A stretch of 64,000 nt of DNA, from assembly GCA_963666975.2 (NCBI GenBank), contig CAXVYR010000002.1, forward strand, positions 320,001 through 384,000, in the 5' to 3' direction. Shown piece after piece: positions 41,303 through 56,365 of the stretch; position 1 is the first letter of the stretch, and every line of letters starts with the position of its first letter. A program made the translations under genes and the position numbers. This stretch comes from Terriglobia bacterium (GTDB lineage: Bacteria > Acidobacteriota > Terriglobia > 2-12-FULL-54-10). The notes under the pieces were generated by a model. That model ran no database searches and was not told the origin of the DNA. It saw nothing but the letters and a program-made list of their open reading frames with translations.

Positions 41303-42664
41303 TCAATAGAGCAGGTACTCGTTCCGCATCCTCAGGAAGGCGGCGTTCTCCCCCTGCCAGTCCCGGGCGATTCGCCGGGGATCGTCGCCGTTGCGTATCC
41401 GTTCGAGCGTAGATTGATTGCCGAGAGACCGGGCAATGTCCTCCAGACGGAACCGTCCGGGGTAAAGCGCATGGAGAGCCGAGGCGATCTCAATTCCCAT
41501 CGCAACAGGCCGGAGAGCATTGCGGTCCGTAATGAGGATGCGGACACCCTGGCAGGCCTCCCCCGCAAAGACCGAACCGGACGGGGTAAACCGGACGGGA
41601 AGAAAACGCACTCCCGGAAGGCTCCTCCGGTTGAGGTAAGCGGCCAGCTCGGTTGCCTGAAGCTCTGTTGCCTGAATCTTTGTTTCCTGAATCTTTGTTT
41701 CCTGAATCCAGGGCGCTCCGAGCAATTCAAACGGGCTGCCGGTTCCGCGGCCTACCGAGACGTTTGAGAATTCCAGCAAACCCACGCCGGGGTAGAGCGT
41801 CGCCTGGCTCAGGTTGCGAATATTCGGTGAAGGGTTGACCCAGCCCAGGCCGGTGGAGTCGTGCCAGTCGCCGCGATTCCATCCCTTCATGGCGATGACT
41901 TCGAGGTCCGCGCCGAGCTGCTGTTCTTCATTGAACATCCGAGCCATCTCGCCGACGGTCATGCCATGACGAACCGGCATGGAGAAGTAGGCGATAAAAG
42001 AGCGCGCTTCCGGGTCGAGCAGAGGCCCTTCCACCTGAAGGCCGGAGATTGGGTTGGGACGGTCGAGCACCACAAAACGGATTTTCGCGCGGGCTGCTGC
42101 CTCCATCGCGTAACCGAGCGTGGTGATGTAGGTGTAAAAGCGCGCTCCGACATCCTGAATGTCAAAGACCAAGGTATCGATTCCCCGCAACATCTCCGGT
42201 GTCGGACGGCGTGTCTTGCCGTACAGGCTGAAGACAGGGATTCCAGTCCCACTGTCCCGCCCGGAAGGAACGTCGCTCTCCTCGGAACGGGCGGTCAAAC
42301 CGTGTTCGGGGCTGAAGGCGGCCACCAATTCCACGCCAGGAGCGGCAGCGAAAATATCCAAGGACCGCCGCCCCTTGCGGTTGACGCCGGTGGCGTTGGT
42401 AATCAACCCAACGCGGCGGCCGCGCAGGGACCGGAATCGGTTCGCCTCCAGCACGTCAATCCCGGTCAGGACCTCAGCCTGGAGAGAACCCAGCAGTAAA
42501 ACGAAAACCCAGGGCAAAAGGATGGCAGGGAGCCTTGCAGTGCTTCCTCTCGGCCGGAATCGAAAATTCACCCTTCTTTTATTGCTTCTTTGATTGCTTC
42601 TTTTGTTGCTTCTGGGCACGACCGGTTGTAAATTCAGTCGGTGTAGATTGGGTTGAGGTTTCAC
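41303..42664 (-). CDS. namZ: Exo-beta-N-acetylmuramidase (DUF1343)
   Basis: GLITNATG, FSPEHG, SLYG, FDIQDVGARFYTY, VLDRPNP, RHGMTVGE, PSPNI; true start is probably downstream of 42664. Confidence 0.9.
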   Translation of the reverse strand: MKPQPNLHRLNLQPVVPRSNKRSNQRSNKRRVNFRFRPRGSTARLPAILLPWVFVLLLGSLQAEVLTGIDVLEANRFRSLRGRRVGLITNATGVNRKGRRSLDIFAAAPGVELVAAFSPEHGLTARSEESDVPSGRDSGTGIPVFSLYGKTRRPTPEMLRGIDTLVFDIQDVGARFYTYITTLGYAMEAAARAKIRFVVLDRPNPISGLQVEGPLLDPEARSFIAYFSMPVRHGMTVGEMARMFNEEQQLGADLEVIAMKGWNRGDWHDSTGLGWVNPSPNIRNLSQATLYPGVGLLEFSNVSVGRGTGSPFELLGAPWIQETKIQETKIQATELQATELAAYLNRRSLPGVRFLPVRFTPSGSVFAGEACQGVRILITDRNALRPVAMGIEIASALHALYPGRFRLEDIARSLGNQSTLERIRNGDDPRRIARDWQGENAAFLRMRNEYLLY

Positions 42665-42700
42665 AACTTTTTATTTTGGCCTAAATTCTGCGGGCAGGCT

Positions 42701-43846
42701 ATGCAAGATTTTGATCTCCCGGCACAAGACCCGGCACTTAAAAAGTTCAGCAAGGCCCTGGAAATTCTGAACACCGCCGTCCGGCAGCATGCATTCCCCG
42801 GCGCCGTGCTGGCCGCAGGTCACGAGGGCAGACTCGCCATCCTGTCCGCAGGAAGGCTGGACTACTCGAAAGAGTCCCCGCCGGCGACGGCTGAAACGAT
42901 TTACGACCTGGCTTCCCTGACAAAGCCGGTGGCTACAGCGACGGCCGCCATGATTTTGGCTGACCGGGGAATGCTGCGTCTGGATCGCCCTGTCGCCGAT
43001 TACCTTCCGGACTTTCTGCAGCCCTTTGTCACCAGCGTAGACCCTTTATACGACGCCCGGAACGAGGTAACCGTGCGGCATCTGCTGGCCCACACCTCCG
43101 GGCTGCCTGCCTATGAAAAGTTCTTTGTGAGGGCGCGGGAGAAGTCCCACGTTCTGGAAGAAGCGCTGGCATTGCCGCTGGAGGAAACTCCCGGAAGGAA
43201 AACTATATACAGTGATCCGGGCTTCATTTTGCTGGGGGAGATTGTGGAGCGCGCTTCCGGCGAGCGGCTGGACGCGTGGTGCAAAAAAGAGATTTTCGAG
43301 CCGCTCCGTATGCAGGACACTTGCTTCAACCCTGCTCAGGACAGGTGGCAGCAAATTGCGCCCACGGAGTTGGACGAGAGTTTCCGGAACCGCCTGATCC
43401 GCGGCGAAGTCCAGGATGAAAACGCATGGGTCATGGGCGGGGTGGCGGGACACGCCGGACTGTTCGGCACCGCCGGGGACATGGCATCCTTCTGCCGGAT
43501 GATGCTGCAAGAAGGAAAACCAGACGGCTCCCAGTTGGTGCAACCCACGACGATCCGGGAATTCACTCAGGCCGGCCATGTTGCGGAAGGAGCATTGCAA
43601 GAAGCATCAGGCCGGGGCCTGGGATGGGACAAACCGAGCGAGCCATCCTCCAGTGGCCGCTACTTTTCTCGCCGCTCGTACGGGCATCTCGGCTTCACGG
43701 GCACGTCGCTTTGGATTGACCCGCAGAAGGCCCTTTTCGTGATCCTGCTGACCAACCGGATTCACCCCAGCCGCTCGAACGAAGCGATCCGGCAGGTCCG
43801 CCCAGCCGTGCACGATGCTGTGGTGGAAGCCCTGGAATCCGGCTAA
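42701..43846 (+). CDS. Serine hydrolase, beta-lactamase class C-like (AmiE/EstB type)
   Basis: YDLASLTK (SxxK), LLAHTSGL, YSDPGF, GVAGHAGLF, GHLGFTGTSLWIDP. Confidence 0.9.
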   Translation: MQDFDLPAQDPALKKFSKALEILNTAVRQHAFPGAVLAAGHEGRLAILSAGRLDYSKESPPATAETIYDLASLTKPVATATAAMILADRGMLRLDRPVADYLPDFLQPFVTSVDPLYDARNEVTVRHLLAHTSGLPAYEKFFVRAREKSHVLEEALALPLEETPGRKTIYSDPGFILLGEIVERASGERLDAWCKKEIFEPLRMQDTCFNPAQDRWQQIAPTELDESFRNRLIRGEVQDENAWVMGGVAGHAGLFGTAGDMASFCRMMLQEGKPDGSQLVQPTTIREFTQAGHVAEGALQEASGRGLGWDKPSEPSSSGRYFSRRSYGHLGFTGTSLWIDPQKALFVILLTNRIHPSRSNEAIRQVRPAVHDAVVEALESG

Positions 43847-44035
43847 TTCAGAAACTTCTATTCCTGCCAACTAGGAAGCTCCAATCAATTCGCTCTCGGA
43901 GCGGTACTTCTTCCAGGCGAACCAGAGGGCGGCTTTGCTTCCCCAACCTTGCGGGACAGTGTAAATTCTGGTAGAAAGGCACTTCAACTTCAATCACCAA
44001 ATCTCCTTCTAGTTTCCATCGAGAAAGAAGCGGCA

Positions 44036-45568
44036 ATGAGCTGGAAAGACCTGGCGGAAATGGCCCCGAAGCTGTCCGAGGCGGAGTTTCGCTTCGAGAA
44101 GAAGCGCCGGTTCATTGGACTGGTTCTGGGTCCGCTGCTGTTTGCTATTGCTCTTCTTGCACCCCCGTTAGAACACGTGACTCCCTTGGGCATGCGCACC
44201 GTGGGCATCTTCTTGTGGACCGTTACGTGGTGGATCTCGGAGGCGATTCCCATCCCTGCGACAGCTTTGTTCTCCATGGCCCTGCTGGTTGTCTGCGGAA
44301 TCCTCCCGGCGCAGGAAGCCTTCAATTACTGGGCCAACTGGGTCAATATTTTCCTCATTGGCGCCTTTATCATCGGACACGCCACCAGCATCCACGGCCT
44401 GACGCGCCGCCTTGCCTACCGCATGATCGCCTCGCCGCTGATCGCCGGCGACCCGTGGAGATTGCTGGTGTTATTTGGAGTTGGCCCGGCTCTATTCAGC
44501 GCGCTTATCTCCAACGTAGTCTCCACCATGATCTTTCTCTCGATCGCGCTGGGCCTGATGAAAACCCTGCAGTTCCCGCAAGAAGGCCGCTACGGCGAAT
44601 CACTGTGTCTGGCCATCGCTTGGGGAGCGGCCATGGGAGGAATTATCACCCCGGTCGGGTCGCCGCCCAATCTGATTATCCTCGGATTTCTGTCGCCGCT
44701 CGGCTACAGCATTGGGTTTGCCCAGTGGACCGCAGTCTGCCTGCCCGTCGCTGTGGCCGGGTTGGCGGCAATGTTTGTTGTGATTCGGTATATCCTTCGC
44801 CCGCAGACGACGGGCTGGCAAGTGTCACCGGAAACGCTCCGGCAGGAGTTGCAGAAGCTGGGCCCCATGAGCCGGGGAGAAAAAATAGCCGGCGGCGCGC
44901 TTCTCACCGCCGTGTTTCTGTGGGTGCTGCCGGACATGGCGCGTATCGTCTTAGGAAGAGATCACGCCTTCAGCGTCTGGCTCACCGTGCATTTGGGCTG
45001 GCAGGTAAGCGCCATTTTAGTGGCGACCGCGTTGTTTTTGATCCCGGTCGATTGGGAGAAACGAACATTTGCCATGAATTGGCCGGAGGCCGTAAGGGGA
45101 ATCGAATGGGGAACGCTGAGCTTGATTGGAGGCGCGCTGGCTTTAGGCAGCATGCTCGCTCACCGGACACTGGGACTGGGAGAGTTCTTTGCGCAAAACA
45201 TCTCTTCGCTGGCTGCCTCGGGCACTTCCCCGTTCTTCTTCGTGCTGGGGGGAGTCGTCTTTACGATCCTGCTCACCAACTTGGCCTCAAACGTGGCCAT
45301 CAGCAGCATGGTGGGCGCGCTCGCCCTGGCGGTGGCTCCTTCGACCGGACTCAACCCTCTCGCCCTGATGGTCCCCATCGCCTTGGCAAGCTCCATGGCT
45401 TTCTCGCTTCCCATGGCCACGCCTCCGAACGCCATCGTCTTCGCCAGCGGCGAGGTCCGCATCACGAACATGTTCAAGAGCGGAGCGGCTCTATCCCTGA
45501 TTTGCATAGCGATCCTCTCGCTGTTCGGTTTCATTTTAGCCGAATGGATTTTTCCCCAGGGCGGTTAA
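44036..45568 (+). CDS. DASS/SLC13 sodium-coupled anion (carboxylate) symporter
   Basis: WWISEAIPIPAT, ISNVVST, GGIITPVGSPPN, ASNVA, FSLPMATPPNAIVF. Confidence 0.92.
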   Translation: MSWKDLAEMAPKLSEAEFRFEKKRRFIGLVLGPLLFAIALLAPPLEHVTPLGMRTVGIFLWTVTWWISEAIPIPATALFSMALLVVCGILPAQEAFNYWANWVNIFLIGAFIIGHATSIHGLTRRLAYRMIASPLIAGDPWRLLVLFGVGPALFSALISNVVSTMIFLSIALGLMKTLQFPQEGRYGESLCLAIAWGAAMGGIITPVGSPPNLIILGFLSPLGYSIGFAQWTAVCLPVAVAGLAAMFVVIRYILRPQTTGWQVSPETLRQELQKLGPMSRGEKIAGGALLTAVFLWVLPDMARIVLGRDHAFSVWLTVHLGWQVSAILVATALFLIPVDWEKRTFAMNWPEAVRGIEWGTLSLIGGALALGSMLAHRTLGLGEFFAQNISSLAASGTSPFFFVLGGVVFTILLTNLASNVAISSMVGALALAVAPSTGLNPLALMVPIALASSMAFSLPMATPPNAIVFASGEVRITNMFKSGAALSLICIAILSLFGFILAEWIFPQGG

Positions 45569-45638
45569 ACCGAACCGGTTTCAGGCGCAGGGCTGCCCGA
45601 GTGGCGATGAGTACGGCTTCGCGGCTCCGCGCGCCGGC

Positions 45639-45825
45639 TACAGCGGTTTCACAAAAGGTGTATAGGACTCGACAGTCAAAGAAGCCACCCACTCGCTTAC
45701 GCTCATGGCTCGGCTTTCGATTCCCCTTTCAGGCCGAATCCGAGCCGCGACTGTAAAGGAGCGGGTTTCCGTGGATGTCGCCGCCACTGCGGGCACTGCT
45801 GTACACTATCTGTGAAAAGGCGCTA
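45639..45825. repeat. MITE-like element (IS630-like ends) with REP-like doublet
   Basis: tacagcggtttcacaaaaggtgtatag...ctgtacactatctgtgaaaaggcgcta; internal ccgagccgcgactgtaaaggagcgg. Confidence 0.65.
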
Positions 45826-45844
45826 AGCTCTGGTTCAGCTCTGG

Positions 45845-46924
45845 TTAAGCCGAGGCGTTAGCCGCCGCCGGCAGGCGGAACAGGGTTTCAAAATTCTTGT
45901 AGAAGATTTTCTTCTTGTCCGCAGCGCTCAGCGAGGATTTTTCCACCGCATCGGTGCATCCACGGATGGAAAATCTTCCCCCCTCGGCGTCAAACGGCGC
46001 GTCGGTGCCGAACAAGATGTGATCCACCCCAAAGAAATCGCAGGCGCACTCAAGGGAGGCCTTGGTGAAAGTTGACGTGTCCCCGTAGAAACACCGGAAA
46101 TATTCAATGGCGGGTTTTTTCAGCGGAGAGCCGCGTTCTGCCTCGATGAGCGGATCAAACATCCCCATCATGGCGACGATTCGGCCCGAAAAGAAGGAGA
46201 CCATGGCTCCGGTGTGGTGCACGATGATCTTTAAGTTGGGGAAATCTTCCAGGATTCCGCTGAAGACAATCCGCGCCATCGCCGCCGTGCTCTCGTAGGG
46301 CCAGCCGAAAATCTGCCAGATGCAGTATTTGGAGTGATCCTCGGCCAGATAATCGGGATGCTTTTGCGAGCGGGCCGGATGCAGCAGGATGGGCAGGTTG
46401 TAGTCCGACATCATCTGGAAGATGGGACGAAACTCCGGCAGGTCCAGGGGCTTGCCCTGCACGTTGGAAAATAGCTGCACGCCGCAGAGCTTCAGGTCCT
46501 GAATGGACCGCTCCAACTCTCTGGCGGCGGCGTCCGGCTTGTCCATTCCGAGCGAGGCCACGGCCCCGGCAAACCGGCTGGGATATTTCGCAACCAGCCC
46601 GGCCAGATCGTCGTTCAGTATTTTGGCCAGAACATCGCTGTCATTCGGGGCCACCACTTCCACGGGCGGACCGGCCACGCTCAGCACCTGCCGGTAGCCT
46701 TCAAACTCTTCCATCATCTGAAACCGGGCGTCGAGGTCGATCAGCACCTGGTAGTTTTCCATGCGCGACTTTCCGCCCTTCACATACTTGATATGCGAAG
46801 GGCTGTGCTCGACGAAATTACTTTGATCCTGCCGCTCCCACCTGGCTGTTTCGTACCCCTTCGGAAGAACATGACAAAAAACATCTACCCGCGGATTCTT
46901 GCGCTGACCCTTTCCCTGTCCCAT
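45845..46924 (-). CDS. Amidohydrolase_2 family protein (ACMSD/aromatic-acid decarboxylase-like)
   Basis: DVFCHV, LPILLHP, GWPYESTAAMARIVFSGI, IIVHHTG, ILFGTDAPF. Confidence 0.88.
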   Translation of the reverse strand: MGQGKGQRKNPRVDVFCHVLPKGYETARWERQDQSNFVEHSPSHIKYVKGGKSRMENYQVLIDLDARFQMMEEFEGYRQVLSVAGPPVEVVAPNDSDVLAKILNDDLAGLVAKYPSRFAGAVASLGMDKPDAAARELERSIQDLKLCGVQLFSNVQGKPLDLPEFRPIFQMMSDYNLPILLHPARSQKHPDYLAEDHSKYCIWQIFGWPYESTAAMARIVFSGILEDFPNLKIIVHHTGAMVSFFSGRIVAMMGMFDPLIEAERGSPLKKPAIEYFRCFYGDTSTFTKASLECACDFFGVDHILFGTDAPFDAEGGRFSIRGCTDAVEKSSLSAADKKKIFYKNFETLFRLPAAANASA

Positions 46925-46984
46925 TCGGCCTCCCCTTTGGACTATTCGTTAGACTGTTGGTTGAATTCGTAGATGGACTTCTAG

Positions 46985-47163
46985 CAGGTTGTTGCAAAAC
47001 ACCATTCGCCCGCTCCCTCACCCCTCGACTTCGCTCCCTTCGGCTATGCTCAGGGCAAGCGGGGCAGGCTCTCGCGGCTCGGAATCGGCGTGCTGATTGG
47101 GCCGTGCTTGCCGAGCCGCGCGCGTTAGCAAGCGGACCCATACACCAGTTTTTCAACAACCTC
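46985..47163. repeat. MITE (IS5/IS1182-like ends) with doubly nested REP-like hairpins, abutting the UbiD stop codon
   Basis: caggttgttgcaaaac / gtttttcaacaacctc flanked by CTAG and TTAG; nested cccctcgacttcgct[cccttcggctatgctcagggcaagc]ggggcaggc. Confidence 0.7.
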
Positions 47164-48630
47164 TTAGGAAGAGAACCCGTACTCCTTCCAGCGGCGGCGG
47201 ACTTTCTCCATTTTTTCCGGCGTAGGATCGGTGCTGGCCGGGAACGGCGCGCCATCCCTGGCATATTCCTCGAGCGGTTTGGTGGCGTCGATGCCGAGCA
47301 GATCCGACTCTCCCCGCCGGGAAGTGACCTGAGACGTATCGAGGGTGATCGACTTGCCTCCGGTCATCATGACCACGTCCCGGCAAGCCTGCACCCGCGT
47401 GGCAATAGCCCACTCGACCAGGAAGGAATTCCACGGGTCGATGTCCTCATCGACCACGGTGACGTGCTTGCAGAACAGGCTCGGGTGGCTCCAGACCTGG
47501 CACATTACGTCGCGGACATGCCCCGGATAGGACTTCCGGATGGAGACGTTCACATGAAAGCCGGCGCATCCGGCCTCGGTGACGCAGACGTCCCGGATTC
47601 CGGCCAACCCGGCGCGCCGCAAATGCTCAAAGACGGCCGCCGAGCGGCCCATGGTCCGCACGGTGGTGCTTTCGCTCGGAGGACGCCCTTCATAGGTGCC
47701 ATGGAATATGGGGTTTTTGCGGTGAGTGACCTTCTTGACCTCAATATAGAAGCTGTTCTTCACCACCCCGCCCATAAATCCGGGGAATTCCCCGAAGGGG
47801 CCTTCTTCCGGCCAGAATTTATCGATGGGCATCTCGCCCTCGATGATGATCTCCGCATGAGCCGGGACCTTCAGGTCGGAAAGCTCCGCCTTCACCAATT
47901 CCATCGGCTTTCCGCTCAGCCCTCCGGCGATGTCATACTCATCCACACCGTAGGGAACCGCCGATACGCTGGTCAGGCTGAGGTAGGGGTCCGGCCCGAT
48001 GACGACGGCGACCGGCATCGGCTTGCCGCGCTCTTTCCATTTGTCCCAGTGCATGCGGATGTGGCGATGAGGAATCAGCAGCACGTAACATCCCATCACA
48101 TCGGCCGTAAAGATTTGATTGCGATAATTGCCGACGTTGGTCCAGCCGGTGTCGGGATCGCAGGTGACGATTCCGTGCAAGGTCCCCAGTTCCGGACCGC
48201 CATCCAGTTCGTGCCATTTCGGCACAGGAAACGGTTCGGCGAAAAGGTCCACCTTGTCCAGGACAACCTCTTTGCAAGGGGCTTCCTCGCGGGGGATCAT
48301 CCTGGGTTTGACTGGATTGCTATAAGCCTGTCGCCACTTGGCCGAGATGGCCTCGATGGTAGGCTCGATACCGAGAGCCAGCGCGTAACGCTCCCTGGTG
48401 GCCAGCGCCCCTACCAGCAAAGGCGTCCGGTAGTTGCCCACCTTTTCAAACTGCAGGGCCGGACCCTGGCGGTCAAAGTTTTCGCGACAGATGGCTCCCA
48501 CTTCCCAATCCTTCTCCACGGGAACCTGTATGTGATGAATCAATTGTTTCTTTTCTAATACGGCAAGGAAGTCTCTCAAGCTGCCGATTGTGGTCTCCAT
48601 CTGGGTTTTCGTTGTGGTGACTGTAGCCAT
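47164..48630 (-). CDS. UbiD-family (prFMN-dependent) decarboxylase/carboxylase
   Basis: SLRDFL, APCKEV, WHELDGG, NVGNYR, AEIIIEG, EEGPFGEFPG, VVDEDIDP, IDATKP. Confidence 0.93.
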   Translation of the reverse strand: MATVTTTKTQMETTIGSLRDFLAVLEKKQLIHHIQVPVEKDWEVGAICRENFDRQGPALQFEKVGNYRTPLLVGALATRERYALALGIEPTIEAISAKWRQAYSNPVKPRMIPREEAPCKEVVLDKVDLFAEPFPVPKWHELDGGPELGTLHGIVTCDPDTGWTNVGNYRNQIFTADVMGCYVLLIPHRHIRMHWDKWKERGKPMPVAVVIGPDPYLSLTSVSAVPYGVDEYDIAGGLSGKPMELVKAELSDLKVPAHAEIIIEGEMPIDKFWPEEGPFGEFPGFMGGVVKNSFYIEVKKVTHRKNPIFHGTYEGRPPSESTTVRTMGRSAAVFEHLRRAGLAGIRDVCVTEAGCAGFHVNVSIRKSYPGHVRDVMCQVWSHPSLFCKHVTVVDEDIDPWNSFLVEWAIATRVQACRDVVMMTGGKSITLDTSQVTSRRGESDLLGIDATKPLEEYARDGAPFPASTDPTPEKMEKVRRRWKEYGFSS

Positions 48631-48980
48631 GATTTGATTCCTTTTCTTGAGGATCGCGCGAGCGCGTTGGAAGGGCACTCTGCCTCAATTCTTTGTTACT
48701 ATGAAGTGCAGTGCTACGCGAAAGAGGAAGGATAAATCCAAACGCGAATAAAGGCAACCACCATCAGCGAGACCCGAGAACCCACATTTTCGTAGCCAAT
48801 TTAGAACAGGCAAGCATAGAGTGCGATAGCTCCCTGGAGCGAGTATGCCGGGGTATGCTTGATACCAAGGGCCAGTTGGCGTATGATTTTGCGCGAAAAC
48901 GAGGGGAAAGCTGGGGGAGCAGTTAAACTATTCATATATTAACGCTTACCAAGAAACAACGATCAGAAAGCGGGTTCGCG

Positions 48981-50192
48981 ATGAATTCACCGGATGCTGG
49001 CTCAAAAGATTCTGGCGCAGAAAATGAGACACGGAGCGTGCCGCACGGCAGCGAAGTCGTCGAGCAGTTCGCAGAAGAAATCCGGCGATTCGTGCGCGCC
49101 GAGCTGATTCCCGCCGAGGCACAAGTCGAAGAAGAAGACCTCGTTCCGGAGCGGCTGGTAGCGATGATGAAGCAGCTTGGCCTGTTCGGCATGACGATCC
49201 CGGAGAGCTACGGCGGCCTTGGATTTTGCATGTCCGAAGAAGTTCGCGTAGTGTACGAACTCGGGTACGCCGCGCCGGCGTTCCGCTCCTGTTTCGGCAC
49301 CAACAACGGCATTGGCTCGCTCGGCCTCCTCGCCGACGGGACCGACGAGCAACGTCAGCAATACCTGCCGCGGATCGCGGCCGGCGACCTGATCGCGGCG
49401 TTTTGCCTGACCGAGCCGGACGCCGGATCAGACGTCGCCGCGCTTTCCACCAGCGCCGTGCGCGACGGGGAATCCTACCTCATCAACGGGACCAAGCGCT
49501 TTGCGACCAACGCTCCGCAGGCCGGCCTGTTCACCGTGTTCGCGCGCACCGCGCCGAAGGAAGCCGGCGCCGAGGGGATCTCGGCGTTTCTGGTCGAGCG
49601 CGCCTCGCCGGGACTCACCGTGGGAAAGCCCTATCAGAAAATGGGATTTCGGGGCTCGCATACTGCTGATGTGGTCTTCGAAGATTGCCGCGTGCCGGCC
49701 ACGGCGCTGCTGGGCGGGAAAGAAGGCGTCGGTTTCAAGTCGGCGATGAAGACACTGGATCACGCGCGCCTGCATCTGGCCGCCGTGGCGGCTGGCCTGA
49801 GCAGACGGCTCATCGACGAGGGCGTGCGCTACACCACCGAGCGCCGGCAATTTGGGCGGCCGATCGCGCAATTTCAACTGATCCAGGGCATGCTGGCCGA
49901 TTGCGAGGCGGAGGCGCTGGCAGCGCACGCCATGGTCGAACGGGTAGCACGCGATAAAGACGCTGGACACCGCATTACGAAGGAGTCGGCCTGCTGCAAG
50001 TACTTCGCAACGGAGGCGCTGGGCCGCATCGCGGACCGTGTGCTGCAGATGCACGGAGGCTATGGCTACATCCGGGAATACCCTGTGGAACGCCTCTACC
50101 GCGACGCGAGGTTGTTTCGCCTGTATGAGGGCACCAGCCAGATCCAGCAACTCGTGATCGCCCGTGAAATGATCCGGCAGACGGCACGCTGA
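48981..50192 (+). CDS. Acyl-CoA dehydrogenase
   Basis: FCLTEPDAGSD, INGTKRFATNA, RRQFGRPI, QMHGGYGY, RLYEGTSQIQ. Confidence 0.95.
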   Translation: MNSPDAGSKDSGAENETRSVPHGSEVVEQFAEEIRRFVRAELIPAEAQVEEEDLVPERLVAMMKQLGLFGMTIPESYGGLGFCMSEEVRVVYELGYAAPAFRSCFGTNNGIGSLGLLADGTDEQRQQYLPRIAAGDLIAAFCLTEPDAGSDVAALSTSAVRDGESYLINGTKRFATNAPQAGLFTVFARTAPKEAGAEGISAFLVERASPGLTVGKPYQKMGFRGSHTADVVFEDCRVPATALLGGKEGVGFKSAMKTLDHARLHLAAVAAGLSRRLIDEGVRYTTERRQFGRPIAQFQLIQGMLADCEAEALAAHAMVERVARDKDAGHRITKESACCKYFATEALGRIADRVLQMHGGYGYIREYPVERLYRDARLFRLYEGTSQIQQLVIAREMIRQTAR

Positions 50193-50424
50193 GCTGCGTA
50201 TTGTGCGGTCACGATTTCCACGTTGGCAACCGATTTGTTGGCAGGCAACGGCAGCGCTTCAATCTTACCGACCTTCTTACCGACCCTGCTGACAAACTGA
50301 CGCGGCTCAGGCTTTTCTTAGTGAGCAGCAACCGGTTGTGATACAAATAGTTGAACGGCCATCCACTCGTCATCACGAACCGCTGTTCGCCTCGGTCGAA
50401 ACCGGGAGATTCCCGGTGAATTCG

Positions 50425-50453
50425 TTGACACACCTTACGTTATAGAGTTTAAT
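50425..50453 (+). promoter_or_regulatory. Sigma70-type promoter for the UbiD/gamma operon
   Basis: TTGACA-N17-TTTAAT; palindrome accgggagattcccggt at 50401-50417 immediately upstream (candidate operator). Confidence 0.55.
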
Positions 50454-50490
50454 GAAGTGTTTTGCCGCAATAATACGGGGGGATAAACTT

Positions 50491-51963
50491 ATGAATCACA
50501 CCGCGGTGGAAGAAAAGATTCCCGTTGAAAAACAGGCTGGGGAAGTTGCCAAGGACCAGCGGAGCTTCATCGAGACGCTACGGCGCACCGGGGACGTTGT
50601 GACCGTGGACCGCGAGGTTCACTGGGATTTGGAGCTGGGGGCCATCAGCCGGCGCGCGACCGAGATGGACGGACCGGCGATCGTGTTCAAAAACATCACG
50701 GATTATCCGGGCCAGAGCATCTTTGTGAACCCCATTTCGACTTGGCGCCGGGCGGCCGTGACGCTGGGATTGCCGGCGCACGCCAAGATATCCGAAATTT
50801 ATGCGGAATACATCCGCAAGGATACCAACGCCATCCCGCCGGTTGAGGTGAAAGACGCCGTTTGCCGGGACGTGATCGTTCGCGGCAAGGACGTCGACGT
50901 GACCAACCTCGCCACTCCCATGATCCACGCCGGAGACGGGGGCCGCTATCTCGGCACATGGTGCATCGTGGTCAGCAAAGACCCCGACACCGGCTGGATG
51001 AACTGGGGCACCTACCGGTTCATGATCCATAACACCCAGTACCTGTCCGGCTGGCCCTTCCCGCCGAGCCATTGCGGAACGATTCTGCAACAGAAATACG
51101 TTCCGCAAAACAAGCCGATGCCGCTTGCCATCATCATGGGGGCGGACCAGTCCAGCCACTTGGCGGCGACCTCAACCACCCGCATCGGTCGCGATGAAGC
51201 TTCGCTCGCCGGAGGATTGGCAGGCCGGCCGATTGAAATCGCCCGCTGCCTCGACAGCGATCTGACCTTCCCGGCGTGCGCCGAGGTCGTGCTGGAAGGA
51301 GAAATTCTTCCCGACCAGATCGCGCACGAAGGCCCCTATGGAGAGTACCCTGGTTACCGCTCGGGTGAAATGGGCGCAGGCATTCTGATGAAGGTAAACA
51401 CCATCGCTCATCGCAAGAACCCCACCCTGTCAATGGATTGCACCGGATTCAAAGATTGCAGCTCGATTGTGGCCGCGCTGGGCGGCGGCGTCGGGATCCA
51501 GCGAACCCTGGAGCGGGCTGGCGTCCCGGTCACGGGCGTTTACGTGCCGTCAGAGGGCGCGGTTCACCTTTGCGTCGTCGGCGTCAGCAAGGGAGGCCGG
51601 GAAGTCACAGAGAAAGTCCTGCACGCTTTGACTGGCCGTCGCACCTATATGACCAAGATTCTCGTCTGCGACGACGACATCGACATCTTCAATCTGAATG
51701 AAGTGATCCATGCGTGGGCCACGCGGTGCCACTCGGAACGCGGCATCATCATTAAGCATGTCGAGGGAAGCGCCCAGGCGCTGACGCCCGCCTACAGCCA
51801 GGAGGAGCGGGCACGGCGCGCCGGAGCCAGCGCCGCGTTTGATGTGACCTTCCCGCCCGAGTGGGATCGCTTGGAGACCCCTGTCCGGGCGACTTTCGAC
51901 AAGATGTTCCCGGAGGAAGTCCAAAAGAAAGTGCTCGACAACTGGAAATCATACGGGTTGTAG
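50491..51963 (+). CDS. UbiD-family carboxylase, phenylphosphate carboxylase alpha (PpcA)/AbcA-like
   Basis: EVHWDLELGAI, NITDYPG, IHAGDGGRYLGTW, NWGTYR, EGPYGEYPGYR, TRCHSERGI, PEEVQKKVLDNWKSYG. Confidence 0.85.
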   Translation: MNHTAVEEKIPVEKQAGEVAKDQRSFIETLRRTGDVVTVDREVHWDLELGAISRRATEMDGPAIVFKNITDYPGQSIFVNPISTWRRAAVTLGLPAHAKISEIYAEYIRKDTNAIPPVEVKDAVCRDVIVRGKDVDVTNLATPMIHAGDGGRYLGTWCIVVSKDPDTGWMNWGTYRFMIHNTQYLSGWPFPPSHCGTILQQKYVPQNKPMPLAIIMGADQSSHLAATSTTRIGRDEASLAGGLAGRPIEIARCLDSDLTFPACAEVVLEGEILPDQIAHEGPYGEYPGYRSGEMGAGILMKVNTIAHRKNPTLSMDCTGFKDCSSIVAALGGGVGIQRTLERAGVPVTGVYVPSEGAVHLCVVGVSKGGREVTEKVLHALTGRRTYMTKILVCDDDIDIFNLNEVIHAWATRCHSERGIIIKHVEGSAQALTPAYSQEERARRAGASAAFDVTFPPEWDRLETPVRATFDKMFPEEVQKKVLDNWKSYGL

Positions 51964-51976
51964 GAGGGAAGCTCAG

Positions 51977-52267
51977 GTGGAATACCAAACCCATGCAAGA
52001 CATATGAACGACATCCAAGAGAACAAGACCCTGGCGCTGACGATCCGCGACCTCAGTCCCGGCAAGCACAAGTACACCGCCCGCGTGGCCCGCGTGCAAC
52101 TGTCGCGCAGCCTCGAAGCCTTGGCGAAGTGGGACAAGCTTTGGGTCCACTCCGTCGTGGGCATCAAGGACCCTCAGCCGTGGGGCATGAAGATCGTGGA
52201 AGAGCTGGGAATCACCGTCCCCGGCAAGCCCTACAGCGACATCTACGAAGTTCTGGCGAAGATGTAG
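51977..52267 (+). CDS. Phenylphosphate carboxylase gamma-subunit (PpcD/AbcD)-like small protein
   Basis: LALTIRDLSPGKHKYT...DKLWV resembles the LELSVRTLNPGxxKYT...DQLQV pattern recalled for Phenyl_P_gamma; RBS ggaggg; directly follows the UbiD gene. Confidence 0.75.
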   Translation: MEYQTHARHMNDIQENKTLALTIRDLSPGKHKYTARVARVQLSRSLEALAKWDKLWVHSVVGIKDPQPWGMKIVEELGITVPGKPYSDIYEVLAKM

Positions 52268-52682
52268 AATCGGGGGACGTCCGGATAGACGCCGCGATTG
52301 AAGCACGCGAGCGAGTCTTCCGGGCCGGTCGTGTTCCCAGTGCGGCTCCTCCGCTCCCAGATTGAAAATTCACAGCGGATTGATCCGTTTCAATGGAAAC
52401 GGCCTGCGGGAGGTCGGCCAACTTCCGCATCCCGGAAGACTTGTTCCCCTCGCCACAAACTAGCTTTTCGAAGCCGGATTTGACAAAAACCCGCCCTTTG
52501 GCAGTTCCCAGGGCGATACCAGGCCGGCACGCATTCATACAAGCTCCGGAACGACGCTACAACCGAAGCCTTCCTTGGACACCCAGCCCGACGCGGATCA
52601 CATCGCGGAGCTTTCGTCGAAGGCAGTTGGAGACCCTGTTGCTGGCAACTCGGAGTGTGATCCTAATCATGTCAGGAGAGGA

Positions 52683-54851
52683 GTGACCTTGACGCTGGGA
52701 AGTCAGAAAAAGTTCGATCTGGACGCCATGTTCAAGCCGCGTTCCATTGCCTTGATCGGTGTTTCCAGCAACTTCACCAAGCTCAGCGGCCGGCCGCTGC
52801 GGTTTCTCCAGGAGTACGGATATTCAGGGAAGATATACCCGGTCAATCCGAACTATAAAGAACTAGCCGGCCTCCAGTGCTACCCCAGCGTGACGGCCGT
52901 GCCCGGTGAGATTGATCTGGCGGTAATTTCCTTGCCTGCGGCTGCGGTTCCCGGGGTCGTCAAGGAGTGTGCCGCCAAAGGGGTAAAGGCGGTAACCGTC
53001 TTTACCGCCGGTTTCTCCGAAATGGACTCCGAAGGACAGCGGCTGCAGGAGGAAATGCGCCAGGCGGCGCTCGATGGAGGCGTGGCCTTGAGCGGCCCCA
53101 ACTGCGCCGGCCTGGTGAGCGTGCGGGAAAAGTCCATGGGCACGTTTATTACGGCCATGGACCGCGGGTCGCTTTTGGAAGGCCCCGTGAGCTTTGTCAC
53201 CCAAAGCGGGGCTCTCGGCACCTACATGTTTGCCGCGGCGCAGGACGCGGGCGTGGGCTTCAACTACTGGGTGAGCACGGGCAACGAAGCGGTGCTGGGG
53301 TTTGCCGACTTCGTTTCCTATTTCGTAAAACAACAGAGCACCCAGGCGATCATGGCCTACATGGAGGATGCACGGGATGGCGAGGCCTTCCAGGCTTGCG
53401 CCCTCGAAGCTCTGGATGCGGGCAAGCCGCTAATCATCCTCAAAGTGGGGGGGTCGGAGACAGGCGCCAAGGCAGCCACCTCCCATACCGGAGCTTTGGC
53501 GGGATCGGACAAGGTATACGATGCTGTATTTGAGCGGTGCGGCGTCATTAGGGCTTATGATGTGGAGGATCTGTATGACCTCGCCAACATCGCCATGGCC
53601 CAGCACTATCCAAAGGGCCCGGCGGTGGCGATGATGACGATCTCCGGGGGCGCAGGCATCCTCATGTGCGACCGCTGCGAGGAGGCGCGGCTGGAAGTAG
53701 CCAGCCTGGCTTCCGAGACGGTGGAGGAACTGCGCAAAGTTTTGCCGCCCTTCGCATCGGCTGTAAATCCCGTGGACGTCACTGCGGAACTGGTGGCCGT
53801 TCCCGGCCTGTTGAAGCGATCGATGGGGATCGTGCTTGCTGATCCAACGGTGGACAGCCTGGTCATCTTTCTCGGGCTACAACTGCACACCGGGACCGAT
53901 CTGGCGCGGGACATTGTGGAAGCTGCCACAGCAACGAAAAAAACGGTCGTGGTGAATTGGATTGCGCCTCCGGAAGATGCACGGGCCATCCTCAGAGAAA
54001 ACAATATCCCGATGTTTCCCGATCCGGCCAGAGGCATCCGGGCGCTCGGCGCGCTGGCGACCTACGCACAGCGGCGTCGCGGTTATCTCGAGCGGAAAAC
54101 CGCCCAGAAGCAAGCATACAAAGAATCCGCACAAGACAAGCAAAGACGGGAGAAAGCCAGGCAAGTCATTCAGGAAGCCCGCCTGCAAGGACGCCAGACC
54201 CTGGCTGAAGGGGAAGCCAAAGCCATCTTGGAACTATATGGCGTTCCAGTGCCGCAGCGGCAGATGGCCCAGAATCGAGCGGCTGCTGCACAAGCGGCTC
54301 AGGAACTGGGCTTTCCGGTGGTGATGAAGATCGCCTCGGCCGACATTACCCATAAAACCGAAGCCGGCGGCGTGCGCCTGGGAATTCAGGACGCGCAGCA
54401 GGCAGCTCAGGCTTACGAGGAGATCATTGCCAAAGCCAAAGCCTATCATCCGCAGGCCACGCTCGACGGGGTCCTCGTGGAGCAAACCGTCAGTGACGGG
54501 CTGCAGGTGATCGTAGGCTTCAAGCAAGACCCCCGGTTTGGGCCGGTGGTAACCTTTGGGTTGGGCGGCATATTCGTTGAACTGATCCGGGACATCACGC
54601 TGCGAGTGGTCCCGCTGTACGAACAAGAAGCGCTGGCCATGATCCGGGAAACCAAGGCCTATCCTCTCCTGACCGGCTATCGCGGCGAACAACCTCGGGA
54701 TATACGTGCCCTTTCCCAGGCCATATTAGCCGTGAGCCAGCTTGCCCAAGAATTCAAAAATGAGTTGGCCGAGCTGGATATTAATCCGCTTATAGTCTTG
54801 CCTGAGGGAAAGGGGGTCAAGGCTGTCGATGCGTTCATGGTGGTCAAATGA
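52683..54851 (+). CDS. ADP-forming acyl-CoA ligase (acetate--CoA ligase family, fused alpha-beta)
   Basis: PRSIALIG, YPVNP, GPNCAG, QSGAL, STGNEA, phospho-His in SHTGALAG, HKTEAGGV, LDINPL; GTG start after aggagagga. Confidence 0.92.
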   Translation: MTLTLGSQKKFDLDAMFKPRSIALIGVSSNFTKLSGRPLRFLQEYGYSGKIYPVNPNYKELAGLQCYPSVTAVPGEIDLAVISLPAAAVPGVVKECAAKGVKAVTVFTAGFSEMDSEGQRLQEEMRQAALDGGVALSGPNCAGLVSVREKSMGTFITAMDRGSLLEGPVSFVTQSGALGTYMFAAAQDAGVGFNYWVSTGNEAVLGFADFVSYFVKQQSTQAIMAYMEDARDGEAFQACALEALDAGKPLIILKVGGSETGAKAATSHTGALAGSDKVYDAVFERCGVIRAYDVEDLYDLANIAMAQHYPKGPAVAMMTISGGAGILMCDRCEEARLEVASLASETVEELRKVLPPFASAVNPVDVTAELVAVPGLLKRSMGIVLADPTVDSLVIFLGLQLHTGTDLARDIVEAATATKKTVVVNWIAPPEDARAILRENNIPMFPDPARGIRALGALATYAQRRRGYLERKTAQKQAYKESAQDKQRREKARQVIQEARLQGRQTLAEGEAKAILELYGVPVPQRQMAQNRAAAAQAAQELGFPVVMKIASADITHKTEAGGVRLGIQDAQQAAQAYEEIIAKAKAYHPQATLDGVLVEQTVSDGLQVIVGFKQDPRFGPVVTFGLGGIFVELIRDITLRVVPLYEQEALAMIRETKAYPLLTGYRGEQPRDIRALSQAILAVSQLAQEFKNELAELDINPLIVLPEGKGVKAVDAFMVVK

Positions 54852-55108: not shown

Positions 55109-56365
55109 ATGCGAAGAATCCTATTTGTAGATGACAAACCGAAGACCTTGGAAGAACTGAAGGTCGTCATGCGCCCGCAACAGGAGCAGTGGGAAATGGC
55201 CTTTGTTGCCGGCAGTGAGGCTGCTCTGGCCATGCTGGAAGCCACGCCTTTCGACGTGATCGTTACGGACCCCAGGCTGGCAGGGGTCAAAAAAACCAGC
55301 CTGCTGAACTTCGTTAAGGACCGGTTTCCCGGAGTGGTCCGCATCGGGCTTTTGGATCAAGGCGATGCCGCATTGCAGGAAGCTCCCATAGCCCATCAAT
55401 TCCTCACCAAGCCCTGCGAACCTTCCGAACTGAGGGTGGCGGTGGAGCGGTCCTGCAAGCTGCGGGATCTGCTGAATGACGAGTTCATTAGCCGCGCCGT
55501 GGGCTCGATGTCCGATCTTCCTTCGCTTCCCAAGGTCTATGAAGAACTCACCAGCGCCTTGAGAAATCCCAACATCTCGCTGAATAAAATTGCCAAAATT
55601 GTGGAGCAGGACGTGGGCATATCGGCCAAGTTGCTGCAACTGGCAAACTCCGCTCTGTTCGGGACCGTGCGGGACATGAACACGGTTCACATGGCGGTCA
55701 GCTACATGGGCCTGGATGTGATCCAGCACATGGTGCTTTCCCTGGAAGTTTTCCGAAGCTTCGAGGGACTCGGAAAAATCGAAGGCTTTTCTCTGGAAGC
55801 AACGCAAGAGCACGCTCAGCTCACCGCCAAAATCACCGCGCGCCTTCTCCCGGCCAAGTACATGGCGGATACGGCGATTGTGGCCGCTCTGCTGCATGAT
55901 GTGGGCAAGCTGGTATTGGTCTCGAAAATGCCCGGCCGTTTCAAGCGGTGCCTGGAAACTTCGCGGGAACAAAACCGTCCCTTGTACCAAGTGGAAGAAG
56001 AGCTGGGCGGGATTACCCACGCGGAGATCGGAGCCTATCTGCTGGGCTTGTGGGGGCTGCCGTATTCGGTCGCCGAAGCCGTGGCGCACCATCACAAGCC
56101 GACGCGCGTGCCGCATCAGAATTTTGACGCGGTGGGAGCGGTTTACGTAGCCAACCTGCTCGCCCATGCTCATGCCCCCGAGGCAAAGACTTCCTGGGAT
56201 GTGGAGGATCCCATCGATGTGGAATACCTTCAGGCCGTCGGCGTAGCGGACCAACTCGAAGGATGGCAGGCGATGGCCAAACAAATGGCGATGCCCCAAC
56301 AGAACGAAAACGAACAGCAGGAAGCGGACGGAGAAAAGCGTGTCCTCAAGCACACTGGCGGATAG
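55109..56365 (+). CDS. Response regulator with REC and HDOD domains
   Basis: ILFVDD, DVIVTD, LPSLP, KLLQLANSALFG, ALLHDVGKL, THAEIGAYLLGLWGLP. Confidence 0.92.
   Translation: MRRILFVDDKPKTLEELKVVMRPQQEQWEMAFVAGSEAALAMLEATPFDVIVTDPRLAGVKKTSLLNFVKDRFPGVVRIGLLDQGDAALQEAPIAHQFLTKPCEPSELRVAVERSCKLRDLLNDEFISRAVGSMSDLPSLPKVYEELTSALRNPNISLNKIAKIVEQDVGISAKLLQLANSALFGTVRDMNTVHMAVSYMGLDVIQHMVLSLEVFRSFEGLGKIEGFSLEATQEHAQLTAKITARLLPAKYMADTAIVAALLHDVGKLVLVSKMPGRFKRCLETSREQNRPLYQVEEELGGITHAEIGAYLLGLWGLPYSVAEAVAHHHKPTRVPHQNFDAVGAVYVANLLAHAHAPEAKTSWDVEDPIDVEYLQAVGVADQLEGWQAMAKQMAMPQQNENEQQEADGEKRVLKHTGG

Follow-up and report, generated by a model that had tools for sequence, protein, structure and literature searches.

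A putative heteromeric UbiD (de)carboxylase of the PpcA/PpcD lineage, with a predicted coupling to CoA ligation, in an acidobacterium equipped for oxygen respiration

A stretch of 64,000 nucleotides (nt) from a Terriglobia bacterium (assembly GCA_963666975.2, contig CAXVYR010000002.1, positions 320,001-384,000 of the forward strand; genome G000, contig C2), referred to here as the window, carries a gene for a UbiD-type protein (UbiD1), followed by a gene for a 96-residue protein and then by a coenzyme A (CoA) ligase gene. The locus raises the question of whether UbiD1 and the small protein are two subunits of one enzyme dependent on prenylated flavin mononucleotide (prFMN), in which direction such an enzyme would work, and whether its reaction is tied to CoA ligation. 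In the initial annotation the locus was read as an aromatic carboxylation cluster. The present analysis points to a (de)carboxylase of the UbiD type that is built of two different subunits, belongs to the PpcA/PpcD lineage and is probably coupled to CoA ligation. UbiD enzymes are sought as CO2-fixing or decarboxylating biocatalysts, and their small partner subunits are poorly understood.

The genome comprises 4.23 Mb in 4 contigs and is 98.88% complete. Genes of the window were defined from a list of open reading frames (ORFs) and from Pfam and NCBIfam profile scans with their cut-offs. The features at the centre of the question are the following:

50452-51963 (ORF; probable start ATG 50491), + strand: UbiD1, large subunit of a prFMN-type (de)carboxylase, with UbiD_N, UbiD and UbiD_C domains
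51977-52267, + strand: small subunit, 96 amino acids, Phenyl_P_gamma family (PF09662 27.5 bits, gathering cut-off 25)
52268-52688, + strand: spacer of 421 nt between the small-subunit and ligase genes, read directly
52575-54851 (ORF; likely start TTG 52689), + strand: ADP-forming (NDP-forming) acyl-CoA synthetase, fused alpha and beta, by its Pfam domains

All three domains of UbiD1 scored above cut-off (UbiD_N 66.2, UbiD 165.6 and UbiD_C 60.5 bits). The best curated family was phenyl_P_alpha (PpcA, TIGR02723), with 352.8 bits against a cut-off of 564.6, and the best solved relative was 7pda (215.5 bits); the one paper found for this code concerns the phenazine-1-carboxylate decarboxylase PhdA. 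Residues N184, R189, H207, E249, E293 and E298 of UbiD1 align with N168, R173, H191, E233, E277 and E282 of Fdc1 (chain 8crd) at a constant offset of 16; in 26 sequences N184 is nearly invariant and the other five are invariant. We take N168, H191 and E233 of Fdc1 to be metal ligands and R173, E277 and E282 to be its Glu-Arg-Glu catalytic set. Further solved relatives were HudA (7abn, 4ip2) and Fdc1, at about 194 bits each, 6da6, presumably TtnD, at 191.6 bits, and 6h6v, which we take to be HmfF, at 129.4 bits.

Over the 401 genomes of the phylum of genome G401, the PpcA model gave no match above cut-off, and its sole match (362.7 bits) was in G401 itself. That match lies at locus L112 (G401:C67:405-4844), which has two UbiD-like stretches, 33-35% identical to UbiD1, adjacent on the same strand.

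The small protein is gamma-like, as had been proposed, by its PF09662 score; against the equivalog model of the phenylphosphate carboxylase (Ppc) gamma subunit (TIGR02725) it obtained 26.7 bits, with a cut-off of 135.55, which makes it a member of the family but no equivalog. Every one of its 29 aligned relatives matches PF09662 at E<=0.01 (best E 1.3e-11), and R24, D25, L26, P28, G29, K32 and Y33 are invariant in this alignment, forming the motif R-D-L-x-P-G-x-x-K-Y. It is the only Phenyl_P_gamma gene of the genome. When 1.84 billion representative proteins were searched with a profile, it fell into a superfamily of 152 clusters (50% identity) at E<=0.001. The TIGR02725 cut-off was reached by none of the 100 representatives scanned, of 150 listed (best 127 bits). 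Judged from these profile scores, the canonical Ppc gamma subunit is for this reason read as a minor offshoot of a diverse family that is mostly unstudied.

For the prediction of a complex, UbiD1 and the small subunit were each entered as their own alignment in three runs, with 3 controls. The score was 0.90 in each run and at best 0.01 in the controls, with a contact agreement of 100% and a predicted local distance difference test (pLDDT) value of at least 93 for the partner. A score of 0.90 is reached by 116 of 157 solved complexes and by 2 of 215 mismatched pairs, rates that are only approximate here because custom alignments were used. On the side of UbiD1 the predicted interface comprises the invariant GDGGR stretch (residues 160-165) and a segment with E293 (285-295); on the other side it comprises residues 24 and 29-37, in the invariant motif. 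No solved relative of the small subunit and no like complex was found in the PDB by sequence (best E 0.17). The predicted fold of the small subunit (pLDDT 88.6) likewise gave no Foldseek match (best E 0.24) and at best a VIA-align Z of 2.8 over 48,161 chains, so the complex score is unlikely to come from recall of a known complex.

These predictions suggest that UbiD1 and the 96-residue protein form one two-subunit complex, a heteromeric prFMN-dependent (de)carboxylase. The small subunit would be seated on the prFMN-binding domain, against the loop with E293 and the HxGDGGRY stretch, where it may shape or gate the active site. In phenylphosphate carboxylase, according to the accessible part of PMC7500099, an alpha-beta-gamma core carries out the carboxylation and gamma needed co-expression with a UbiD subunit, which fits a tight complex.

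To place the pair among its relatives, UbiD1 was searched against proteins and metagenomes. The protein search gave 433 relatives among 8000 candidates scored; the best 120 were all at least 53% identical, and the named ones among these belong to Acidobacteria/Terriglobia, Binatia and Desulfobacterales metagenome-assembled genomes (MAGs). In the metagenome scan, 593 stretches encoded UbiD1 relatives, of which the best 80 were examined together with 2 of 3 genome loci (82 loci). These fall into a close clade (at least 70% identical to UbiD1) and a wider clade (49-57%), the closest public loci being from Acidobacteria MAGs. A search of another 400 genomes from the phylum to which the window belongs found no UbiD1 orthologue at E<=1e-100, and only 3 of these 400 matched the window's ligase at E<=1e-150, at just 38-40% identity; phylum-level context is therefore uninformative.

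The small gene follows the UbiD gene in 64 of the 74 loci whose sequence continues for at least 330 nt past UbiD, the set used for these counts: 9 of 16 in the close clade and 55 of 58 in the wider one. Together with the uniform PF09662 matches and the complex score, this bears out the two-subunit UbiD of the initial annotation and supports a genuine two-subunit unit of the PpcA/PpcD lineage. The pair belongs to a distinct, widespread and uncharacterised branch of that lineage.

In the window itself the two genes are closely packed. The UbiD1 stop ends at 51963, GGAGG follows, and the GTG start of the small gene is at 51977, which gives exactly the spacing of 13 nt noted before. The probable UbiD1 start, ATG 50491, is preceded by a G-rich stretch, and relatives align from about residue 10-13. 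From the stop of the upstream acyl-CoA dehydrogenase (ACAD) gene to this ATG there are about 298 nt; with the 421-nt spacer on the other side, tight packing is therefore limited to UbiD1 and the small gene. The likely ligase start, TTG 52689, is preceded by AGGAGAGGAG, in an ORF open from 52575.

The link to CoA ligation emerges from the wider clade, for which a ligase was counted when it lay within 2.5 kb of the locus. Such a ligase is present in 41 of 63 wider-clade loci, and in 22 of 28 when only those with enough flanking sequence on each side are considered. Seventeen loci have a PaaK-like ligase directly upstream, 24 an AMP-binding ligase, mostly directly after the small gene, and 1 an ADP-forming ligase. 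A Pfam scan of 10 long loci found a ligase abutting the pair in all 10, and in L051 and L072 the ligase gene shares 4 nt with the small gene. That three unrelated ligase families occupy the same place across loci is the strongest argument that the enzyme works together with CoA ligation. For the wider family, this gene order supports a functional tie, and the enzyme would stand in series with a CoA ligase, with an aryl-, heteroaryl- or acyl-CoA as pathway intermediate.

The window's own ligase carries CoA_binding_2 (85 bits), Succ_CoA_lig (159.9), ATP-grasp_5 (254.8) and Ligase_CoA_2 domains in a single chain. Its best solved relative is the 4-hydroxybutyrate-CoA ligase [ADP-forming] 8wzu (437.2 bits), and it is below every NCBIfam equivalog cut-off (best 518.2 against 1300). 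An ADP-forming ligase 82% identical to it follows the small gene in L030, the only repeat of this arrangement among 19 close loci, where the spacer measures 239 nt; the 421-nt spacer seen here is poorly conserved against it. The proposed ligase link thus stood for the wider family and not, beyond L030, for the ADP-forming ligase in the close clade. In the close locus L034 the gene directly upstream encodes a DHB-AMP-ligase-like enzyme (549.9 bits).

The genes named in the initial annotation (UbiD, 96-residue protein, ligase, second UbiD, amidohydrolase, ACAD and DASS transporter) were all seven recovered by ORFs, Pfam and NCBIfam. The remaining features of the region are:

43949-45568 (ORF), + strand: DASS-family anion symporter (TIGR00785 214.1 bits, cut-off 198.6)
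45845-46924, - strand: Amidohydro_2 protein of the metal-dependent decarboxylase group (PF04909 110.4 bits)
47164-48678, - strand: UbiD2, a divergent UbiD paralogue with UbiD_N, UbiD and UbiD_C domains, transcribed away from the ACAD gene
48981-50192, + strand: ACAD, upstream of UbiD1, with three ACAD domains (Pfam)
50425-50453, + strand: promoter-like motif TTGACA-17 nt-TTTAAT, found by eye and weak, just upstream of the probable UbiD1 start

The DASS ORF starts at 43949; the start of 44036 given previously is 29 codons inside it. UbiD2 and the amidohydrolase are on the strand opposite to UbiD1. The promoter-like motif is absent from the output of the automated promoter and terminator scan, whose counts were not above those for shuffled sequence; no + strand terminator-like site was found in the 421-nt spacer, and Rfam gave no match at E<=0.1 between 43000 and 56500. 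Just upstream of the DASS gene (41303-43846), a NamZ-type exo-beta-N-acetylmuramidase (- strand) and a beta-lactamase-family protein (+ strand) are divergently encoded, and directly after the ligase (55109-56365, + strand) comes a gene whose product joins a response-regulator receiver to HDOD and HD domains.

Orthologues of UbiD1 that are 74-94% identical sit beside LpxB, AbiJ, DAHP synthase, UvrB or a phytoene-desaturase-family oxidoreductase, and the ACAD, UbiD2, amidohydrolase and DASS genes were not found next to them. The seven-gene stretch of 10.8 kb is no conserved cluster, and the aromatic carboxylation cluster proposed as a unit did not hold. In five close orthologous loci (L020, L022, L023, L024 and L032), the phytoene-desaturase-family flavin adenine dinucleotide (FAD) oxidoreductase comes directly after UbiD (168 bits to TIGR02734, under cut-off); only 50 nt separate its start from UbiD in L022-L024, with no small gene between.

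This mobility of the surroundings bears on the reading that adjacency is coincidental here. In this reading the pair is a self-contained transcription unit, the ADP-forming ligase and the ACAD serve acid activation and beta-oxidation in a module of their own, and the partner ligase, if any, is encoded elsewhere. The two flanking spacers and the promoter-like motif agree with it, as do the unrelated neighbourhoods of the orthologues. So does genome G402, where the ligase orthologue (70% identical) is on another contig than the pair, and L066, where an ADP-forming ligase is grouped with two ACADs and an enoyl-CoA hydratase. The 12 AMP-binding and 2 PaaK-like tblastn high-scoring segment pairs elsewhere in the window's genome also favour it. 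It is opposed by the order of small gene and ADP-forming ligase kept in L030, by the ligase of some type that abuts the pair in most of the wider family, and by L092 and L066, which also have an ACAD near the pair. Coincidental adjacency is regarded as less likely than not, yet quite plausible. The adjacent ADP-forming ligase is the candidate partner.

The rest of the genome was searched for cofactor supply and for further Ppc parts. It holds 11 UbiD-domain matches (on C2, C3 and C4) and only one UbiX above cut-off (C3:1248377-1248922, TIGR00421 228.6 bits, cut-off 108.9), which would supply prFMN. The absence of phenylphosphate synthase (pps), the HAD-type subunit and ubiX from the window, as previously noted, was confirmed: UbiX lies on C3, and PPDK_N and the HAD matches under cut-off lie on C4, the window being on C2. 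Taken as one, the claim that the small subunit sits on the prFMN-binding domain, that UbiX provides the cofactor and that the enzyme acts in series with a CoA ligase is considered highly probable.

UbiD1 might instead belong to an ordinary phenylphosphate carboxylase with its other parts scattered in the genome, as its PpcA-like best match and its gamma-family partner would allow. The scores contradict this. The alpha and gamma matches of 352.8 and 26.7 bits fall short of 564.6 and 135.55, UbiD2 as beta subunit (TIGR02724) reached 221.9 against 468.95, and no HAD-type subunit (TIGR02726) was above 281.95 in the genome (best 136 and 133.1 bits, both on C4). The only PEP-synthase-type protein of the genome is a single frame of 901 amino acids on C4, matched by PPDK_N (PF01326) in three pieces, and 6-oxocyclohex-1-ene-1-carbonyl-CoA hydrolase (Oah) is not above cut-off. 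The initial annotation had drawn attention to the case of an ordinary PpcA whose ppcBC and pps genes lie elsewhere; this was not found in the genome when HAD, PPDK_N and gamma were searched for, and we consider this explanation extremely improbable.

The known routes through benzoyl-CoA were also searched for. Oah (best 86.4 against 464.45 bits) and BoxB (best 197.1 against 499.1) were not above cut-off in the genome, and AFOR_N and HGD-D had no match there. The BoxB-model match is a frame of 392 amino acids at C4:67004-67981 (- strand), which may represent a di-iron epoxidase of a related kind, PaaA for example. Two haem-copper oxidases are encoded, from which the host is predicted to respire with oxygen. 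Judging from these gene searches, a route from benzene or phenol to benzoyl-CoA would have no visible continuation in this host.

The direction of the reaction was approached through the neighbours. UbiD2 is 29% identical to UbiD1, with domain scores of 55, 207.3 and 94.8 bits for UbiD_N, UbiD and UbiD_C, above cut-offs; its best solved relative is 6h6v (231.1 bits), and the solved phthaloyl-CoA decarboxylases (Pcd; 8oz5, 8pmk) gave 52.7 bits. Solved relatives of the amidohydrolase are the uncharacterised hydrolase 3ij6 (154.8 bits), ACMSD (109.9), gamma-resorcylate decarboxylase (106.8) and the LigW-type 5-carboxyvanillate decarboxylase (94.5). A DASS paralogue, 49% identical, lies 721 nt from another UbiD at C4:835256. 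Near family members there are TctC receptors (12 loci) and IclR regulators (5 loci), and in L050 and L051 a bicupin resembling gentisate or 5-aminosalicylate 1,2-dioxygenase is directly upstream of UbiD.

We lean to decarboxylation because of the DASS symporter, the 6h6v-like UbiD2 and the decarboxylase-type amidohydrolase next to UbiD1, the second UbiD-DASS pair, and the TctC receptors, IclR regulators and gentisate-dioxygenase-like cupins near family members. The aerobic host, lacking the benzoyl-CoA markers searched, and the weak pull of an ADP-forming ligase add to this lean, as does the precedent of an isophthalate-CoA ligase working with an isophthalyl-CoA decarboxylase, as given in the available part of PMC9516798. 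The enzyme may thus remove one carboxyl group of an imported aromatic or heteroaromatic polycarboxylic acid, before or after thioesterification of the other carboxyl group. This reading, in which an imported aromatic polycarboxylate is decarboxylated and the step stands in series with CoA ligation, is held tentatively, somewhat short of even confidence.

Loci with a PaaK-like ligase (L039, L041, L049, L053, L058 and others) often also hold one to four genes of the ornithine-cyclodeaminase/mu-crystallin family (14 loci), and SsuA/NMT1-type binding proteins occur in 11 loci, which hints at a nitrogen-containing substrate in this subgroup.

The ACAD invites a reading in which the substrate of the pair is an alpha,beta-unsaturated acid that is not aromatic, or its CoA ester, and is converted by an Fdc1-type cycloaddition, the ligase activating an imported aliphatic dicarboxylate and the ACAD then making the double bond. 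Fdc1 and 6da6 are among the closest solved relatives of UbiD1, and the ACAD, the ligase related to 4-hydroxybutyrate-CoA ligase and the DASS symporter are adjacent. The best NCBIfam match of the ACAD is the acryloyl-CoA reductase AcrC (361.2 bits, cut-off 640). Against it, an ACAD is near the pair in only 2 of 82 loci, L092 (69% identical) and L066 (26-32%), and the neighbours at other loci are of aromatic-acid type, namely the gentisate-dioxygenase-like cupin, the DHB-AMP-ligase-like enzyme of L034 and the IclR regulators. We know of no precedent for an ACAD-ligase-UbiD route on unsaturated aliphatic acids, and this explanation appears very unlikely.

The initial annotation had proposed the opposite direction. 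In this reading the pair would be a carboxylase acting without prior phosphorylation on a phenolic, heteroaromatic or unactivated ring, with the ligase trapping the acid and pulling the reaction forward. UbiD1 with PpcA as its best family and a Phenyl_P_gamma partner agrees with this, and so does the carboxylating core of phenylphosphate carboxylase, with its co-expressed gamma, as described in the accessible text of PMC7500099. The tight ligase coupling, with some gene overlaps, is what the trapping of a scarce product needs; most ligases of the family are AMP-forming and would pull strongly. Xanthine-dehydrogenase-type molybdenum enzymes adjoin the UbiD-small gene-ligase trio in L051 (molybdenum cofactor and FAD subunits) and L072 (three subunits), with scores like those of 4-hydroxybenzoyl-CoA reductase, and such enzymes would fit a phenol-type carboxylation route.

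On the other side, the genome is without a known benzoyl-CoA route and has two haem-copper oxidases, it shows no second PPDK_N protein of pps type and no HAD subunit above cut-off, and carboxylate transporters and decarboxylase-type neighbours are present. The ligase of the window is ADP-forming; such ligases work near equilibrium and give little thermodynamic pull. Against this weak pull stands a value of +14 kJ/mol quoted for naphthalene carboxylation in the available text of PMC12016498. The carboxylase claim is weakened because the host can apparently respire oxygen, lacks the benzoyl-CoA dearomatising markers searched and has a ligase that would pull little. The trapping carboxylase is seen as less likely than not, though only a little behind the decarboxylating reading.

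The preferred decarboxylase in series with CoA ligation has several observations to contend with. PpcA is the best-scoring curated family for UbiD1, and no match to the solved phthaloyl-CoA decarboxylases (8oz5, 8pmk) was found for it at E<=1e-10. The only biochemically studied enzyme with a Phenyl_P_gamma-type subunit is a carboxylase, the subunit roles being those described in the accessible part of PMC7500099. Transporters are near only a minority of loci, and the FAD subunit of the L051 molybdenum enzyme scores best against 4-hydroxybenzoyl-CoA reductase beta. As to the two-subunit unit, 7 of 16 close orthologues show no downstream small gene. As to the ligase, only 2 of 19 close loci have any ligase within 2.5 kb, the 421-nt spacer parts the window's ligase from the pair, and the module of L066 is separate from the pair, which has its own PaaK-like ligase there. 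The counts include several near-duplicate loci, each counted, and were obtained with crude ORF calling and with ligases identified by BLASTP with three representatives. The orthologues without a downstream small gene do not differ at the predicted interface (identity 0.76-0.83, against 0.78-0.85 elsewhere), and in their genomes the small gene may be located elsewhere.

Among known systems, Thauera aromatica's phenylphosphate carboxylase, with an alpha-beta-gamma core and a delta phosphatase, resembles the pair in that UbiD1 best matches alpha and that the partner of about 10 kDa belongs to PF09662. It differs in that the alpha and gamma of the window are far below the equivalog cut-offs and that no beta paralogue is adjacent here and neither a HAD delta subunit above cut-off nor a phenylphosphate synthase was found in the genome; moreover, the recurrent neighbour is a CoA ligase and no kinase, in a host with oxygen respiration and without the benzoyl-CoA markers searched. 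The putative anaerobic benzene carboxylase AbcDA from enrichment culture BF, with its benzoate-CoA ligase, and N47's naphthalene carboxylase, compared by their descriptions, follow a like logic: one cluster holds a UbiD resembling PpcA, a small partner subunit and an aryl-CoA ligase. For AbcDA, a figure legend of PMC7976604 names the accession ADJ94002. Their hosts are strict anaerobes with aryl-CoA reductases, none of which was found in the window's genome, where the ligase is, unlike theirs, ADP-forming. The benzene and naphthalene carboxylases and PpcA have a mutual similarity of 45-48% according to the available part of PMC12016498.

A decarboxylating system is the cluster of Syntrophorhabdus aromaticivorans, whose isophthalate-CoA ligase, which is PaaK-like, and isophthalyl-CoA decarboxylase, which is of UbiD type, work together according to PMC9516798. 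It shares a PaaK-like ligase by UbiD, the arrangement of the 17 family loci with such a ligase directly upstream, and an unexplained small protein; this protein, compared by description, is of 15 kDa and is reported to be without known relatives in the available text (PMC9516798). Unlike the window's host, S. aromaticivorans is a strictly anaerobic fermenter that degrades benzoyl-CoA.

PhdA (7pda), HudA (7abn, 4ip2) and Fdc1 are the closest solved structures, and their metal-binding and Glu-Arg-Glu positions align with those of UbiD1; unlike UbiD1, they have no Phenyl_P_gamma partner in their solved entries. To our knowledge, no ligase coupling has been described for them. The HmfF/HmfD route, from furan-2,5-dicarboxylate to furoate and furoyl-CoA, which is said to have been described by Koopman et al. 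in 2010, similarly has a decarboxylase and then a ligase acting on an imported dicarboxylate; UbiD2 has 6h6v as its best relative, and in some family loci a xanthine-dehydrogenase-type enzyme follows. UbiD1 differs, with just 129.4 bits to 6h6v, and HmfF is not known to have a small subunit. In a literature search that left out about 1.7 million PubMed Central articles and most subscription journals, no paper combining 'phenylphosphate carboxylase' and 'Acidobacteria' and no description of a UbiD-Phenyl_P_gamma-CoA ligase module was found.

A sizeable unstudied branch of the UbiD family is hereby defined, with relatives encoded on 593 metagenome stretches. In this branch, which lies outside the classical anaerobic degraders, a subunit like PpcA is accompanied by a Phenyl_P_gamma partner and by a CoA ligase. 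The predicted complex gives a testable model of the place where the small subunit binds. If the enzyme is a decarboxylase, it would point to soil bacteria that process aromatic polycarboxylates by way of CoA-linked steps; if it is a carboxylase, the known range of aromatic CO2 fixation would be widened. A bolder proposal, which we find rather unlikely, is that the pair and its ligase carry out phosphorylation-independent aromatic C-H carboxylation in bacteria of soil and groundwater that respire oxygen (Acidobacteriota, Binatia and others), and that the small subunit shuts the active site over the ring. Were it true, phenolic or heteroaromatic rings would undergo CO2-dependent activation in organisms other than strict anaerobes as well.

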